Source: Escherichia coli
GTDB lineage: Bacteria > Pseudomonadota > Gammaproteobacteria > Enterobacterales > Enterobacteriaceae
NCBI RefSeq assembly: GCF_009931435.1
Contig: NZ_CP043414.1
Direction: 5' to 3' (one strand)
DNA: 64,000 bases
A program made the position numbers and the translations under genes. Every line of letters starts with the position of its first letter. Position 1 is the stretch's first letter. Shown here piece after piece: positions 28,185 to 34,855 of this stretch. The notes beneath the pieces are model-generated. The model did no database searches. It was not told where the DNA came from and saw only the letters and a program-made list of their open reading frames with translations.

Positions 28185-29513
28185 TTAACGGACTTTAGCC
28201 AGATATTGCTTCATCTCTTCTTCCGGCACCATTCCACCTCCTGTCGCCCACACCAGATGAGTGGCATTACGCAGTTGTTCTGTGCTGAAACCTTGCATCT
28301 GTTGGTAAATTACTGATGCGCACACGCGCTGAGGCCCGGCCATACCCGCCAGTGCTGAAGGCTCAAGACGAATGTCTTCTTCCTGCGCCAGCCAGCCAAG
28401 CATGTCATACATGGTTTGATCGCTAAGGGTATAGAAGCCATCCAGTAGACGCTCCATTGCCCGCCCGACAAAGCCTGATGCGCGACCAACTGCAAGGCCA
28501 TCCGCGGCGGTAAGGTTGTCGATACCAATATCCTGAACAGAAATCTGATCGTGTAATCCAGTATGGACGCCTAACAGCATACAAGGGGAGTGCGTGGGTT
28601 CGGCAAAAAAGCAGTGAACATGATCGCCAAACGCCAGTTTAAGCCCGAATGCGACGCCACCAGGACCACCGCCAACGCCACACGGCAGATAGACAAACAG
28701 AGGGTTATCAGCATCGACAATACGACCTTGCTCGGCAAATTGCGCTTTAAGACGCTGGCCTGCGACGGAATACCCAAGGAACAACGTGCGGGAATTCTCG
28801 TCATCAATAAAGAAACAGTTCGGGTCAGACTGCGCTGCTTTACGTCCTTCCTCGACGGCAACACCATAATCTTGCTCATATTCCACGACCGTAACGCCAT
28901 GGCTGCGCAGTTTCGCTTTTTTCCATGCCCGGGCATCAGCAGACATATGTACTGTCACCTTAAAGCCAATGCGGGCGCTCATAATACCGATTGATAACCC
29001 CAGATTTCCGGTTGAGCCCACAGCAATGCTGTATTGGCTAAAGAACTGCTTAAACTCCGGAGAAAGCAGTTTGCTGTAGTCATCTTCAAGCGTCAGCAAC
29101 CCTGCTTCCAGAGCCAGTTTTTCTGCATGTGCCAGGACTTCATAAATCCCGCCGCGTGCTTTTATGGAGCCGGAAATAGGCAAATGGCTATCTTTTTTCA
29201 GTAACAGTTGCCCGCTGATCGGTTGCTGATATTCCTTTTCCAGCCGTTTTTGCATAGCCGGAATCGCAACCAGTTCTGATTCAATAATCCCTCCAGTGGC
29301 AGCAGTTTCAGAAAATGCTTTTGCCAGATAAGGGGCAAAACGAGATAAGCGCGCATGGGCGTCCTGAACATCCTGTTCGGTCAGGCCAACATAAGGTAAA
29401 CCTTCAGCCAATAGAGTCGTGCCAGGATTAAACCAGGTGGTTTCTTTAAGAGCAACCAGATCCTTTACCAACGGATACTGGGCGATGAGCGAGTTCATTT
29501 TAGCGTTTTCCAT
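28185..29513 (-). CDS. dsdA: D-serine ammonia-lyase (D-serine dehydratase)
   Basis: 442 aa; PLP lysine motif (SGSIKARGG). Confidence 0.95.
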
Positions 29514-29713
29514 AATATGTCTCTTTGCGCTTCGATGATAAATGACAGCAGGAATGTGCCCGCCAGAGCGACGACTGAAGCGATAAATGTCGCTGTCGTA
29601 TAGTATTTAAATGTTTCATTGAGCGCAGCGCCGCAATATTGCTTCACCAGCCAGAAAAGCGAGTCCGTAACGAACGTGCAGCCAATCGCAATAATTTCCG
29701 GGCTGATGTCTGG
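29495..29713 (-). pseudogene. dsdX: 3'-terminal remnant of D-serine transporter gene (GntP family)
   Basis: Minus-strand frame reads ...[54 protein letters not shown]..., a hydrophobic permease C-terminus, bounded upstream by a stop at ~29714-29716 with no start; lies just upstream of dsdA, where dsdX sits in K-12. Confidence 0.5.
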
Positions 29714-29969
29714 TTACAGCCACAGCACAATGATCCATATTTATATTTTTTCTCCGGGTGGGTGATGCCAGTCGGCATGATTTACCTACTTGTCTGCATG
29801 GTGACTCGTTGGCGAGAACAGAGGCGGAATTGGTTACAATTGTCCGGGAATTCTTGTTATTTTTTACTGTATTGTCGTGTCGGGTGATAGGACGTTGAGA
29901 ATATCGCTGGATCTCGCCAGTGACGTCTGTTTCTGCTACAGTGCCCGTTTTACGGCAAACGGCTTGGGT

Positions 29970-32621: not shown

Positions 32622-33536
32622 ATGTCAGCCAAAGTATGGGTTTTAGGGGATGCGGTTGTCGATCTCTTGCCTGAATCAGACGGGCGCCTACTGCCTTGTC
32701 CTGGCGGCGCGCCAGCTAACGTTGCGGTGGGAATCGCCAGATTAGGCGGAATAAGTGGGTTTATAGGCCGGGTGGGTGATGATCCTTTTGGCGCGTTAAT
32801 GCAAAGAACGCTGCTAACGGAGGGAGTCGATATCACGTATCTGAAGCAGGATGAATGGCACCGAACATCCACGGTGCTTGTCGATCTGAACGATCAGGGG
32901 GAACGTTCATTTACGTTTATGGTCCGCCCTAGTGCCGATCTTTTTTTAGAGACGACTGACTTGCCCTTCTGGCGACATGGCGAATGGTTACATCTCTGTT
33001 CTATTGCGTTGTCTGCTGAACCTTCGCGTACCAGCGCATTTACTGCGATGACGGCGATCCGGCATGCCGGAGGTTTTGTCAGCTTCGATCCCAATATTCG
33101 TGAAGATCTGTGGCAAGACGAGCATTTGCTCCGCTTGTGTTTGCGACAGGCGCTACAACTGGCGGATGTCGTCAAGCTCTCGGAAGAAGAATGGCGACTT
33201 ATCAGCGGAAAAACACAGAACGATCGGGATATATGTGCTCTGGCAAAAGAGTATGAGATCGCCATGCTGTTGGTGACTAAAGGTGCAGAAGGGGTGGTGG
33301 TCTGTTATCGAGGACAAGTTCACCATTTTGCTGGAATGTCTGTGAATTGTGTCGATAGCACGGGGGCGGGAGATGCGTTCGTTGCCGGGTTACTCACAGG
33401 TCTTTCCTCTACGGGATTAGAGACCGATGAGAGAGAAATGCGACGAATTATCGATCTCGCTCAACGTTGCGGAGCGCTTGCAGTAACGGCGAAAGGGGCA
33501 ATGACAGCGCTGCCATGTCGACAAGATCTGGAATAG
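32622..33536 (+). CDS. cscK: Fructokinase (PfkB family)
   Basis: 304 aa; PfkB motifs GGAPANVA and DSTGAGDAF. Confidence 0.9.
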   Translation: MSAKVWVLGDAVVDLLPESDGRLLPCPGGAPANVAVGIARLGGISGFIGRVGDDPFGALMQRTLLTEGVDITYLKQDEWHRTSTVLVDLNDQGERSFTFMVRPSADLFLETTDLPFWRHGEWLHLCSIALSAEPSRTSAFTAMTAIRHAGGFVSFDPNIREDLWQDEHLLRLCLRQALQLADVVKLSEEEWRLISGKTQNDRDICALAKEYEIAMLLVTKGAEGVVVCYRGQVHHFAGMSVNCVDSTGAGDAFVAGLLTGLSSTGLETDEREMRRIIDLAQRCGALAVTAKGAMTALPCRQDLE

Positions 33537-33607
33537 TGAGAAATAAACGGCGAGGCCGTTCTTGTCTCTGAATAGGACGTGAATATTTTAACGACAGGCA
33601 GGTAATT

Positions 33608-34855
33608 ATGGCACTGAATATACCATTCAGAAATGTGTACTATCGTTTTGCATCCAGTTACTCATTTCTCTTTTTTATTTCCTGGTCGCTGTGGTGGTCG
33701 TTATACGCTATTTGGCTGAAAGGACATCTAGGGTTGACTGGGACGGAATTAGGTACACTTTATTCGGTCAACCAGTTTACCAGCATTCTATTTATGATGG
33801 TCTACGGCATCGTCCAGGATAAACTCGGTCTGAAGAAACCGCTTATCTGGTGTATGAGTTTCATCCTGGTCTTGACCGGACCGTTTATGATTTACGTTTA
33901 TGAACCGTTACTGCAAAGCAATTTTTCTGTAGGTCTAATTTTGGGGGCGCTCTTTTTTGGCTTGGGGTATCTGGCGGGCTGCGGTCTGCTTGATAGCTTC
34001 ACCGAAAAAATGGCACGAAATTTTCATTTCGAATATGGAACAGCGCGCGCCTGGGGATCTTTTGGCTATGCGATTGGCGCGTTCTTTGCTGGCATATTTT
34101 TCAGTATCAGTCCCCATATCAACTTCTGGTTGGTTTCGCTATTTGGCGCTGTATTTATGATGATCAACATGCGTTTTAAATATCAGGATCAGCAGTGCGT
34201 AGCGGCAGATGCGGGAGGGGTAAAAAAAGAGGATTTTATTGCAGTTTTCAAGGATCGAAACTTCTGGATTTTCGTCATATTTATTGTGGGGACGTGGTCT
34301 TTCTATAACATTTTTGATCAACAGCTCTTTCCTGTTTTTTATGCAGGTTTATTCGAATCACACGATGTAGGAACGCGCCTGTATGGTTATCTCAACTCAT
34401 TCCAGGTTGTACTCGAAGCGCTGTGCATGGCCATTATTCCTTTCTTTGTTAATCGGGTAGGGCCAAAAAATGCATTACTTATCGGTGTTGTGATTATGGC
34501 GTTGCGTATTCTTTCCTGCGCACTGTTCGTTAATCCCTGGATTATTTCATTAGTGAAGCTGTTACATGCCATTGAGGTTCCACTGTGTGTCATTTCCGTC
34601 TTCAAATACAGCGTGGCAAACTTTGATAAACGCCTGTCGTCGACGATCTTTCTGATTGGTTTTCAAATTGCCAGTTCGTTGGGGATTGTGTTGCTTTCAA
34701 CGCCGACTGGAATACTTTTTGACCATGCAGGTTACCAGACGGTTTTCTTCGTAATTTCGGGTATTGTCTGCCTGATGTTGTTATTTGGCATTTTCTTCCT
34801 GAGTAAAAAACGTGAGCAAATGGTGATGGAAACGCCTGTACCTTCTGCAATATAG
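33608..34855 (+). CDS. cscB: Sucrose:H+ symporter (LacY-like oligosaccharide:H+ symporter)
   Basis: 415 aa, 12-TMS MFS permease; synteny within the csc locus. Confidence 0.9.
   Translation: MALNIPFRNVYYRFASSYSFLFFISWSLWWSLYAIWLKGHLGLTGTELGTLYSVNQFTSILFMMVYGIVQDKLGLKKPLIWCMSFILVLTGPFMIYVYEPLLQSNFSVGLILGALFFGLGYLAGCGLLDSFTEKMARNFHFEYGTARAWGSFGYAIGAFFAGIFFSISPHINFWLVSLFGAVFMMINMRFKYQDQQCVAADAGGVKKEDFIAVFKDRNFWIFVIFIVGTWSFYNIFDQQLFPVFYAGLFESHDVGTRLYGYLNSFQVVLEALCMAIIPFFVNRVGPKNALLIGVVIMALRILSCALFVNPWIISLVKLLHAIEVPLCVISVFKYSVANFDKRLSSTIFLIGFQIASSLGIVLLSTPTGILFDHAGYQTVFFVISGIVCLMLLFGIFFLSKKREQMVMETPVPSAI

Follow-up and report, generated by a model that had tools for sequence, protein, structure and literature searches.

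The replacement of dsdC and most of dsdX by the csc sucrose-catabolism genes has been published for E. coli strains EDL933, W and EC3132 (PMC7486766, PMC4366372, PMC3032704). The csc regulon known from E. coli W and EC3132 (Bockmann 1992; Jahreis 2002; work of Arifin, Sabri and Vickers) contains, according to published descriptions (PMC3032704, PMC3938415), the same four genes as the 64-kb stretch of DNA analysed here (hereafter referred to as the window), with divergent cscA and cscKB, CscR operators and cAMP-CRP sites, and it is likewise inserted between the argW region and dsdX. The csc genes confer growth on sucrose in EHEC and E. coli W (PMC7486766, PMC3032704, PMC3938415), and this growth is abolished by csc deletion in strains carrying the locus (PMC7486766). 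In EHEC with the csc genotype, dsdA is silent, and D-serine accumulates and is toxic; toxicity is relieved by uptake-blocking mutations, and deletions in the cscR region reactivate dsdA from cscAp (PMC7486766). The csc-for-dsdCX swap, the logic of its junctions, its frequency in diarrhoeagenic E. coli and its physiological effects (sucrose use, toxicity and sensing of D-serine, and dsdA reactivation) are already published. The alternative dsdCXA arrangement of K-12 and CFT073 has dsdC and dsdX nt 1-1120, both of which are missing from the window, whereas dsdA is orthologous (97.5% amino-acid identity) and the emrYK-evgAS and argW-yfdC-mlaA flanks are colinear with the window.

We consider it very probable that the locus in the window is this known csc allele of the Escherichia argW-dsd region, defined by a foreign block, the loss of dsdC and the 5' part of dsdX, and a silent dsdA; no feature of the sequence speaks against this. 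Homology to K-12 breaks at 29727/29728 and at 35289/35290 (blastn and alignments), and positions 29728-35290 (5,563 bp) stand in place of 2,367 bp of K-12 (dsdC and dsdX nt 1-1120). In K-12 coordinates, 2476600-2478966 is swapped for window 29728-35289 in an otherwise colinear region, base 35290 being shared and ambiguous. The foreign block contains cscR, cscA, cscK and cscB, together with a fragment of a broken DUF4942 gene. A preliminary description of this DNA had proposed that csc has taken the place of dsdC and the greater part of dsdX, with dsdA orphaned as a result, and the K-12 alignment and the literature on csc-positive strains bear this out. All four csc genes were found between dsdA and the argW prophage remnant, at or near the coordinates proposed; the interval given for the locus (29495-34855) placed the genes correctly but was too short, as the block extends 435 bp past the end of cscB, to 35290.

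The alignments to K-12 and O157:H7 that the same description had called for placed both junctions and found them to be the same in the O157:H7 comparator, Sakai. The left junction (29727..29728), at which dsdX codon 374 meets csc-side DNA, was placed by alignments and a junction probe; the aligned sequences of the window, 2013C-4282, Ec-U18/C1 and Sakai all switch at exactly this base. The right junction is a 15-nt copy of the argW 3' end (35291-35305), which forms the edge of the argW prophage remnant; alignments showed it to be common to the window, 2013C-4282 and Ec-U18, and homology to Sakai also stops exactly at this att copy. The block thus spans the region from directly after the argW 3'-end sequence to dsdX codon 374, so that dsdC and the 5' 84% of dsdX are missing and, with them, the DsdC-dependent dsdXA promoter.

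The four csc ORFs are full length. cscR (29970..30965, plus strand) encodes a LacI-family repressor of the csc regulon of 331 aa, with LacI and Peripla_BP_1 domains (PF00356 and PF00532) and 97.0% amino-acid identity, over the full ORF, to Sakai ECs_3244, annotated as the sucrose operon repressor. The orthologue of its product is named CscR in RefSeq, and the assignment was made by orthology because no CscR-specific NCBIfam model passed the cut-off for this product. The 362-aa ORF starting at GTG 29877 is a mechanical extension of cscR. The product of cscA (30973..32406, minus strand), a GH32 sucrose hydrolase (invertase) of 477 aa, has Glyco_hydro_32N and 32C domains (PF00251, PF08244), a TIGR01322 score of 480 bits (cut-off 356) and the GH32 catalytic motifs WMNDPNG, RDP and EC. 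cscK (32622..33536, plus strand) encodes a PfkB-family fructokinase of 304 aa, with a Pfam PfkB domain and 504 bits to the fructokinase equivalog NF006957 (cut-off 450). Finally, cscB (33608..34855, plus strand) encodes a LacY-family sucrose:H+ symporter of 415 aa, matching PF01306 (LacY_symp) over its full length with 637 bits and TIGR00882 with 590 bits (cut-off 220), and 97.8% identical at the amino-acid level to the Sakai sucrose transport protein ECs_3241. Sucrose would enter through CscB and be split by CscA, with CscK phosphorylating the fructose.

The cscA and cscKB genes would be transcribed divergently out of a 215-bp spacer (32407..32621), to which CscR operators and cAMP-CRP sites have been assigned in published work (PMC3938415). 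Pattern and repeat searches identified in this spacer two exact 13-nt TGTTAACGTTAAC palindromes, which are operator-like, at 32440-32453 and 32504-32517, and between them, at 32486-32501, a perfect CRP core, TGTGA-N6-TCACA, the sole perfect one in the 64 kb. Judging from the sequence, the divergent layout with putative operators and a CRP site is thus present in the window, and CscR may repress cscA and cscKB through both palindromes, with cAMP-CRP activating through the central site. The other intergenic region, lying upstream of cscR between the divergent dsdA and cscR (29728..29969, plus strand), is foreign, with no homology to K-12, and is kept in csc-positive strains. Neither ahead of dsdA nor ahead of cscR did the pattern search find a site resembling a CscR operator, consistent with the published observation that CscR does not directly repress dsdA (PMC7486766). 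A consensus promoter scan of 29400-35400 returned 3 sites, against 9.7 in shuffled sequences, and is thus uninformative as to a dsdA promoter.

A sucrose-positive phenotype is plausible by analogy but conditional, because wild-type CscR of E. coli W is de-repressed only above 1% sucrose; fast growers of this strain arise through cscR, operator or cscB mutations (PMC3938415). The csc genes might accordingly be phenotypically cryptic, with the strain scored as sucrose-negative in routine tests, given that in E. coli W the wild-type CscR holds the regulon repressed until sucrose reaches about 1% (PMC3938415) and that cscR and both operator-like sites are intact in the window. We regard this as unlikely: the four genes are intact, with dN/dS values of 0.06-0.14 indicating continued use, and csc-dependent growth on sucrose is documented for strains that carry the same locus, as described above.

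The physiology of D-serine depends on what remains of dsdCXA. dsdA (28185..29513, minus strand) is an intact ORF encoding a D-serine ammonia-lyase of 442 aa, with 804 bits to the TIGR02035 equivalog (cut-off 368) and 97.5% amino-acid identity to K-12 DsdA. Next to it lies a 3' remnant of dsdX (29531..29727, minus strand), 197 nt corresponding to K-12 dsdX nt 1121-1338 minus 21 bp, as established by blastn, tblastn, alignments and translation. An intact DsdX (GntP-family, 445 aa) is lacking: only DNA for residues 374-445 of the 445 in K-12 DsdX is left (tblastn, E = 6e-26), and it carries an internal stop (TAT>TAA at 29714-29716), a 21-bp (7-codon) deletion between 29682 and 29683 and a change of the native stop from TAA to GAA at 29531-29533. 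The fragment, assigned to dsdX in the preliminary description, does align with this gene (blastn and tblastn), but the length of about 72 codons proposed for it requires correction: the stop-to-stop frame runs from 29495 to 29713 and only about 60 of its codons are dsdX-derived, the last 12 being read-through codons due to the mutation of the native stop.

The absence of a dsdC activator from the locus, also proposed previously, was confirmed for the 64-kb window with tblastn and NCBIfam searches, the only hit to the LysR activator DsdC being a 34% match in the HTH region of an unrelated LysR protein; tblastn likewise found no dsdC or dsdX 5' sequence elsewhere in the 64 kb. The LysR gene at 36948-37832 was considered as a displaced dsdC and ruled out, since its 34% identity is confined to the HTH and its score of 62 bits falls far short of the DsdC cut-off (316). 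Its top match is AceR-like, and its partner gene encodes a PACE transporter.

A second, intact dsdCXA elsewhere in the genome could compensate for the loss and render the strain D-serine-positive. Two dsdCXA copies are reported for K1 strains (title of Moritz & Welch 2006, cited by PMC3032704), and a chimeric probe joining csc to dsdC-dsdX matched at 5,870 places, distributed over 5,343 genomes, so some genomes hold more than one segment; the close relative NT1F25 has two. Nevertheless, in 24 of the 25 genomes sharing the csc allele at ≥99.7%, including 2013C-4282, the probe found a single place, the csc part, in keeping with mutual exclusivity of this allele and dsdCX, and the search for a second dsdC or dsdX 5' copy was also negative in the 64-kb window, making such compensation very improbable here. 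Having lost its activator and operon promoter, dsdA would be essentially silent, and D-serine arriving through other transporters would go undegraded, with growth inhibition as the expected result. Deletions removing cscR could bring dsdA under control of the promoter of cscA. D-serine import is also carried out by CycA and SstT. A further conserved uptake system is reported (PMC4699771), and because of these other transporters the term D-serine-uptake deficient, used in the preliminary description, was overstated; induction deficiency is supported by the literature on the same locus in other strains. These phenotypes (sucrose growth, D-serine sensitivity and dsdA silence) are predictions for the strain, based on what is published for O157:H7, E. 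coli W and EC3132.

Beyond cscB, the block carries a DUF4942 gene remnant (34935..35117, minus strand), recognised from translations, which comprises the N-terminal part only and has an in-frame stop in the window. The intact-frame orthologue of strain C1 matches PF13708 at profile positions 8-62 of 190 (E = 1e-8). This remnant probably stems from the element that delivered csc. The argW gene itself, encoding tRNA-Arg(CCU) and serving as the integration site, lies at 38969..39043 on the minus strand (ARAGORN; Rfam tRNA, 63 bits). The copy of its last 15 nt (35291..35305, minus strand; attR, K-12 'pawZ') is an exact repeat of 38969-38983, expected by chance 0.01 times at this length, and the repeat extends to 21 nt (35285-35305); the copy delimits both the csc block, at its right end, and the prophage remnant, at its left end. 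This 3.7-kb remnant (35306..38968, minus strand), delimited by K-12 homology, the 2013C-4282 annotation and NCBIfam, carries torI (35379-35579), two small hypothetical genes, a PACE efflux transporter gene (36386-36844), the LysR regulator gene (36948-37832, plus strand), a pyrophosphohydrolase fragment and a 5' fragment of intS. It matches K-12 at 35290-35701 and from 38336 onward (blastn), torI and the intS fragment being homologous to those of CPS-53. The region is thus a CPS-53/KpLE1-like stretch of integrase and excisionase DNA bounded by a direct repeat of the tRNA 3' end.

Comparison with other genomes placed the window in a divergent, cryptic-clade-I-like lineage, about 5% diverged from typical E. 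coli. It is 99.6% identical over 28100-36100 to 2013C-4282, a strain listed as clade I (PMC10100065). Both have the prophage remnant with its PACE/LysR pair, and in both the dsdX remnant shows the 21-bp deletion and has lost its native stop. 2013C-4282 is nonetheless a different strain, with emrY 97.1% identical and the dsdX remnant differing at about nine positions. O157:H7 (EDL933 z3623-z3626; Sakai ECs_3241-ECs_3245) has the same gene order, orientation, dsdX junction, DUF4942 relic and att boundary; over window 25000-35305, Sakai aligns colinearly with 94.9% nucleotide identity, and its Csc proteins are 97-98% identical. Past the att copy the two differ, with the P22-like prophage Sp16 in Sakai and the torI-containing remnant in the window. 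The Sakai dsdX remnant, unlike that of the window, has a K-12-like frame, without the 21-bp deletion or the TAA at codon 5, and keeps its native stop. Two features are specific to the window: its origin in this divergent, clade-I-like lineage, and the further decay there of the dsdX remnant, through the internal stop, the deletion and the loss of the native stop.

The csc allele is widespread: at least 80% of dsdA plus csc was covered in 2,643 of 5,426 complete E. coli genomes, and a junction-spanning probe was covered to the same extent (≥80%) in 2,677 of the 5,426 (about 49%). The swap, present in about half of the complete genomes, is thus real but ordinary, and its earlier presentation as described for some lineages, correct in that it is described, understated its frequency. 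A small addition to what is published is that all clade-I-like genomes in the set searched apparently have the identical junction, which points to a single old event and to an allele that crossed or pre-dated the divergence of about 5%. We infer a single ancestral replacement beside argW, after which the allele may have spread or been inherited widely, including by the clade-I-like lineage, with different prophages taking argW afterwards. Independent gain of csc in this divergent lineage, by recurrent insertion, would be compatible with this divergence and with the description of the argW region as a recombination hot spot (PMC4366372), but the window, Ec-U18/C1 and Sakai agree to the base in the junction at dsdX codon 374 and also in the att boundary, and the DUF4942 relic is common to the compared loci; an identical illegitimate junction effectively refutes independent events. 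The reverse direction, in which csc is ancestral and K-12-like strains gained dsdC and the 5' part of dsdX by insertion, is the least plausible of all. Each allele is found in about half of the genomes, so that frequency by itself gives no polarity, but of a GntP-family gene of 445 codons the csc allele keeps only DNA equivalent to the last 72, fused mid-codon to unrelated DNA, a truncated and hence derived state, and it has a broken mobile-element gene (DUF4942) at the opposite block end.

Within the csc allele, dsdA itself has been retained. It is full length in csc-positive lineages as distant as cryptic clade I and O157:H7, with dN/dS of about 0.02-0.10, and is conserved while the adjoining dsdX remnant collects stops and a deletion. 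Its dN/dS ranged from 0.02 to 0.13 across all between-lineage comparisons and was 0.19, calculated from 12 differences, with respect to the near-identical 2013C-4282. For dsdA and the csc genes, dN/dS was significantly below neutrality in every pair, and sequence comparison thus indicates that none of the five genes is disrupted and that purifying selection acts on each. For dsdA, such strong constraint fits awkwardly with a plainly silent gene. Homologous recombination with dsdCXA-positive strains could keep refreshing dsdA, as suggested by Sakai dsdA being nearer to K-12 (dS 0.039) than to another csc-positive strain (dS 0.056). It is possible, though we put it forward tentatively and as the less probable reading, that the orphan dsdA is more than a relic carried along and has a DsdC-independent role in csc-positive strains. 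It might provide some low-level detoxification, expressed from a weak promoter of its own, or serve as a selectable 'standby' gene that deletions in the cscR region switch on time and again. The decay of the dsdX stub beside a conserved dsdA provides an internal control for selection on dsdA, and is a second small addition to the published picture. For annotation purposes, the locus predicts a sucrose-utilising, D-serine-sensitive strain without D-serine catabolism.

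The gene layout was obtained from an ORF listing, a tRNA search and family scans (NCBIfam and Pfam-type domains). The plus-strand genes emrK (25355-26518) and emrY (26518-28056) are followed by dsdA (28185-29513, minus strand; 442 aa), a dsdX-like stub (29531-29727, minus strand), cscR (29970-30965, plus strand; 331 aa), cscA (30973-32406, minus strand; 477 aa), cscK (32622-33536, plus strand; 304 aa) and cscB (33608-34855, plus strand; 415 aa). A prophage remnant of ~3.7 kb separates the csc block from the argW tRNA-Arg(CCU) gene (38969-39043, minus strand). NCBIfam scores exceeded the curated thresholds for CscA (480, cut-off 356), CscK (504, cut-off 450), CscB (590, cut-off 220) and DsdA (804, cut-off 368), and CscR contained LacI HTH and sugar-binding domains, so the preliminary description had called these five genes correctly. 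The C-terminus of DsdA (28185-28190) reads ...LAKVR in the window and ...LAKGR in 4/4 compared strains, making G441V private to the window.

The window was colinear with K-12 MG1655 (2,508,695 to 2,462,000; ~95-96% identity by blastn), with the exception of two segments. In the first, positions 29728-35290 (5,563 bp) stand in for K-12 2,476,600-2,478,966 (2,367 bp), which contains dsdC, the dsdC-dsdX spacer and dsdX nt 1-1120; in the second, prophage CPS-53 is mostly missing or different. In the alignments, the left break (29727/29728) falls on base 2 of dsdX codon 374. The right break is a 15-nt copy of the argW 3' end (TGGTGTCCCCTGCAG, 35291-35305), which repeats 38969-38983 exactly and is annotated pawZ/attR in K-12. 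These breaks confirm the claimed replacement of dsdC and most of dsdX by csc, but the block does not end with cscB at 34855, as first proposed: foreign DNA continues ~435 bp further, because the break lies at the att copy, beyond a 183-nt relic of a DUF4942 gene with an in-frame stop in the window. In the window, the att direct repeat spans 21 nt (GATAAATGGTGTCCCCTGCAG, 35285-35305 and 38963-38983), extending six bases beyond the tRNA end shared with K-12 pawZ, and these six bases differ in the csc-positive strain C1/Ec-U18, which suggests that lineages differ in the crossover point or in the phage that integrated.

Among the 5,426 complete E. coli genomes of the collection, 2,643 matched window 28100-36100 (dsdA and the csc block) with ≥80% coverage, and 2,677 did so for a 287-nt probe across the left junction. 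O157:H7 Sakai was colinear with the window over 25000-35305 (94.9%), departing from it exactly past the att copy, where its prophage Sp16 starts. These counts and this colinearity indicate that the arrangement and both its boundaries are common to about half of sequenced E. coli, with only the argW prophage differing. The swap is real and was correctly read, but it is already known. In most LEE-positive strains, csc lies in place of dsdCX (PMC4366372). Lineage-specific decay of the stub and conservation of the orphan dsdA are minor additions to this finding.

The window diverged from K-12 by ~4-5% across 30 kb of colinear core genes, and only ~22-25 of the 5,426 RefSeq "E. coli" complete genomes were close to it. 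The top overall match was 2013C-4282 (99.6% over the locus), which is among the cryptic clade I strains (PMC10100065). Together, these observations suggest that the source was most likely a clade-I Escherichia strain. Divergence from K-12 held for the whole window, especially 1-29727 and 38336-64000. The 43000-64000 flank carries fadL-fadIJ-sixA, the yfc fimbrial operon and mnmC, and in roughly half of E. coli genomes the best match to it reached only 80-90% identity. At 61516-61966, a REP/BIME-type repeat array consists of three to four tandem 94-nt units, each matching Rfam naRNA4 (RF02564; 81-82 bits, cut-off 59.5).

The stub is a true dsdX remnant, aligning to DsdX residues 374-445 (tblastn, E = 6e-26). 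It has three lesions in the window, none of which is present in K-12, C1/Ec-U18 or Sakai: TAT>TAA (29714-29716), an in-frame loss of 21 bp between 29682 and 29683, and mutation of the native stop to GAA (29531-29533). This last mutation extends the frame 12 codons past the native stop, to 29495, which accounts for the start coordinate and the length of ~72 codons originally assigned to the fragment; the stop-to-stop frame (29495-29713) does have 72 codons, but only ~60 come from dsdX. The 21-bp deletion was common to 25 close genomes (record span 285 nt) and absent from the next-ranked genomes listed (span 307 nt). Among clade-I-like genomes, the stub varied by ~2-4% and cscA by only 0.1-0.3%, and stub differences from 2013C-4282 fell within ~65 nt; this variability, based on small numbers, could stem from weaker selective constraint, a small tract of recombination or a hot spot for mutation.

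The sole match to DsdC in the 64-kb window was the HTH end of a LysR gene (36948-37832; 34% identity), which was rejected as DsdC on its score (62 bits, cut-off 316) and its neighbour, a PACE efflux transporter. As a genome-wide proxy in relatives, we used a chimeric megablast query (1.8 kb of window cscA-cscK plus 1.5 kb of K-12 dsdC-dsdX 5'), with the closest genomes ranked first and the number of places counted per record. A single place, the csc part, was found in 24/25 genomes with this csc allele (≥99.7%), including 2013C-4282. The reported lack of a dsdC activator thus holds in the window, and by this proxy close relatives appear to lack dsdCX altogether. The LysR gene and the PACE-family gene, which encodes a multidrug/biocide efflux transporter (152 aa; 206 bits, cut-off 165), form a divergent pair in the prophage remnant (36386-37832) that is also present in 2013C-4282. 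The top NCBIfam match of the LysR regulator is AceR, and the pair appears to be prophage-remnant cargo resembling AceI/AceR.

Full-length copies of dsdA and all four csc genes were present in the window, 2013C-4282, C1 and Sakai. By the Nei-Gojobori method, the csc genes had dN/dS of 0.06-0.14 when the window was compared with C1 or Sakai, and dsdA had 0.02-0.13 between lineages, including csc+/csc+ pairs; for dsdA of the window against the near-identical 2013C-4282 the value was 0.19, from only 12 differences. Every dsdA pair was significantly below neutrality (p from 2e-3, window/2013C-4282, down to 4e-12). Recombination in the region is likely, because csc and dsdA dS values against E. coli sensu stricto (0.09-0.18) are below that of flanking emrKY (~0.24), and dsdA alleles do not group by csc status (dS 0.039 for Sakai/K-12 and 0.056 for Sakai/C1). 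Against 2013C-4282, emrY (26518-28056) is mosaic (dS 0.11, 97.1% identity), whereas its neighbours emrK, dsdA and csc have dS <0.03, indicating a recombination tract.

The csc state is probably derived, since a truncated dsdX is joined mid-codon to unrelated DNA with a broken mobile-element gene at its argW-proximal end. Its likely source is an element that lay immediately past argW, with a subsequent deletion extending into dsdX. Clade I, O157:H7 and commensal strains have the same junction to the base, which favours a single event, after which the allele would have been inherited or passed by homologous exchange. Different phages would later have integrated at argW, duplicating the tRNA end.

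The 215-bp cscA-cscK spacer contains two exact copies of a palindrome-containing site (TGTTAACGTTAAC, 32440-32452 and 32504-32516), and between them (32486-32501) is a perfect TGTGA-N6-TCACA core that occurs nowhere else in the 64-kb window. These candidate sites match the CscR operators and cAMP-CRP sites of the published bidirectional csc promoter (PMC3938415). No operator-like site was found between cscR and dsdA, which fits with dsdA not being directly repressed by CscR (PMC7486766). In O157:H7 EDL933, which has an identical locus, dsdA is silent because DsdC is missing, and D-serine-tolerant mutants arise through blocked uptake or through cscR-removing deletions placing dsdA under the cscA or z3622 promoter (PMC7486766). 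The geometry required for such reactivation is present here, with cscA and dsdA on the minus strand and the plus-strand cscR between them. Sucrose growth of E. coli W is due to csc, and its genome paper ascribed the loss of D-serine use to the insertion in dsdX (PMC3032704).

Mechanism and physiology are transferred here from these literature strains. By analogy with EDL933, the predicted deficiency in induction is reasonable. The sucrose-positive phenotype also appears reasonable, but would be conditional on sucrose concentration, as de-repression of wild-type CscR requires >1% sucrose (PMC3938415). By contrast, deficient D-serine uptake would not be expected, because D-serine still enters EDL933, where it is toxic, the named transporters being DsdX, CycA and SstT (PMC7486766).
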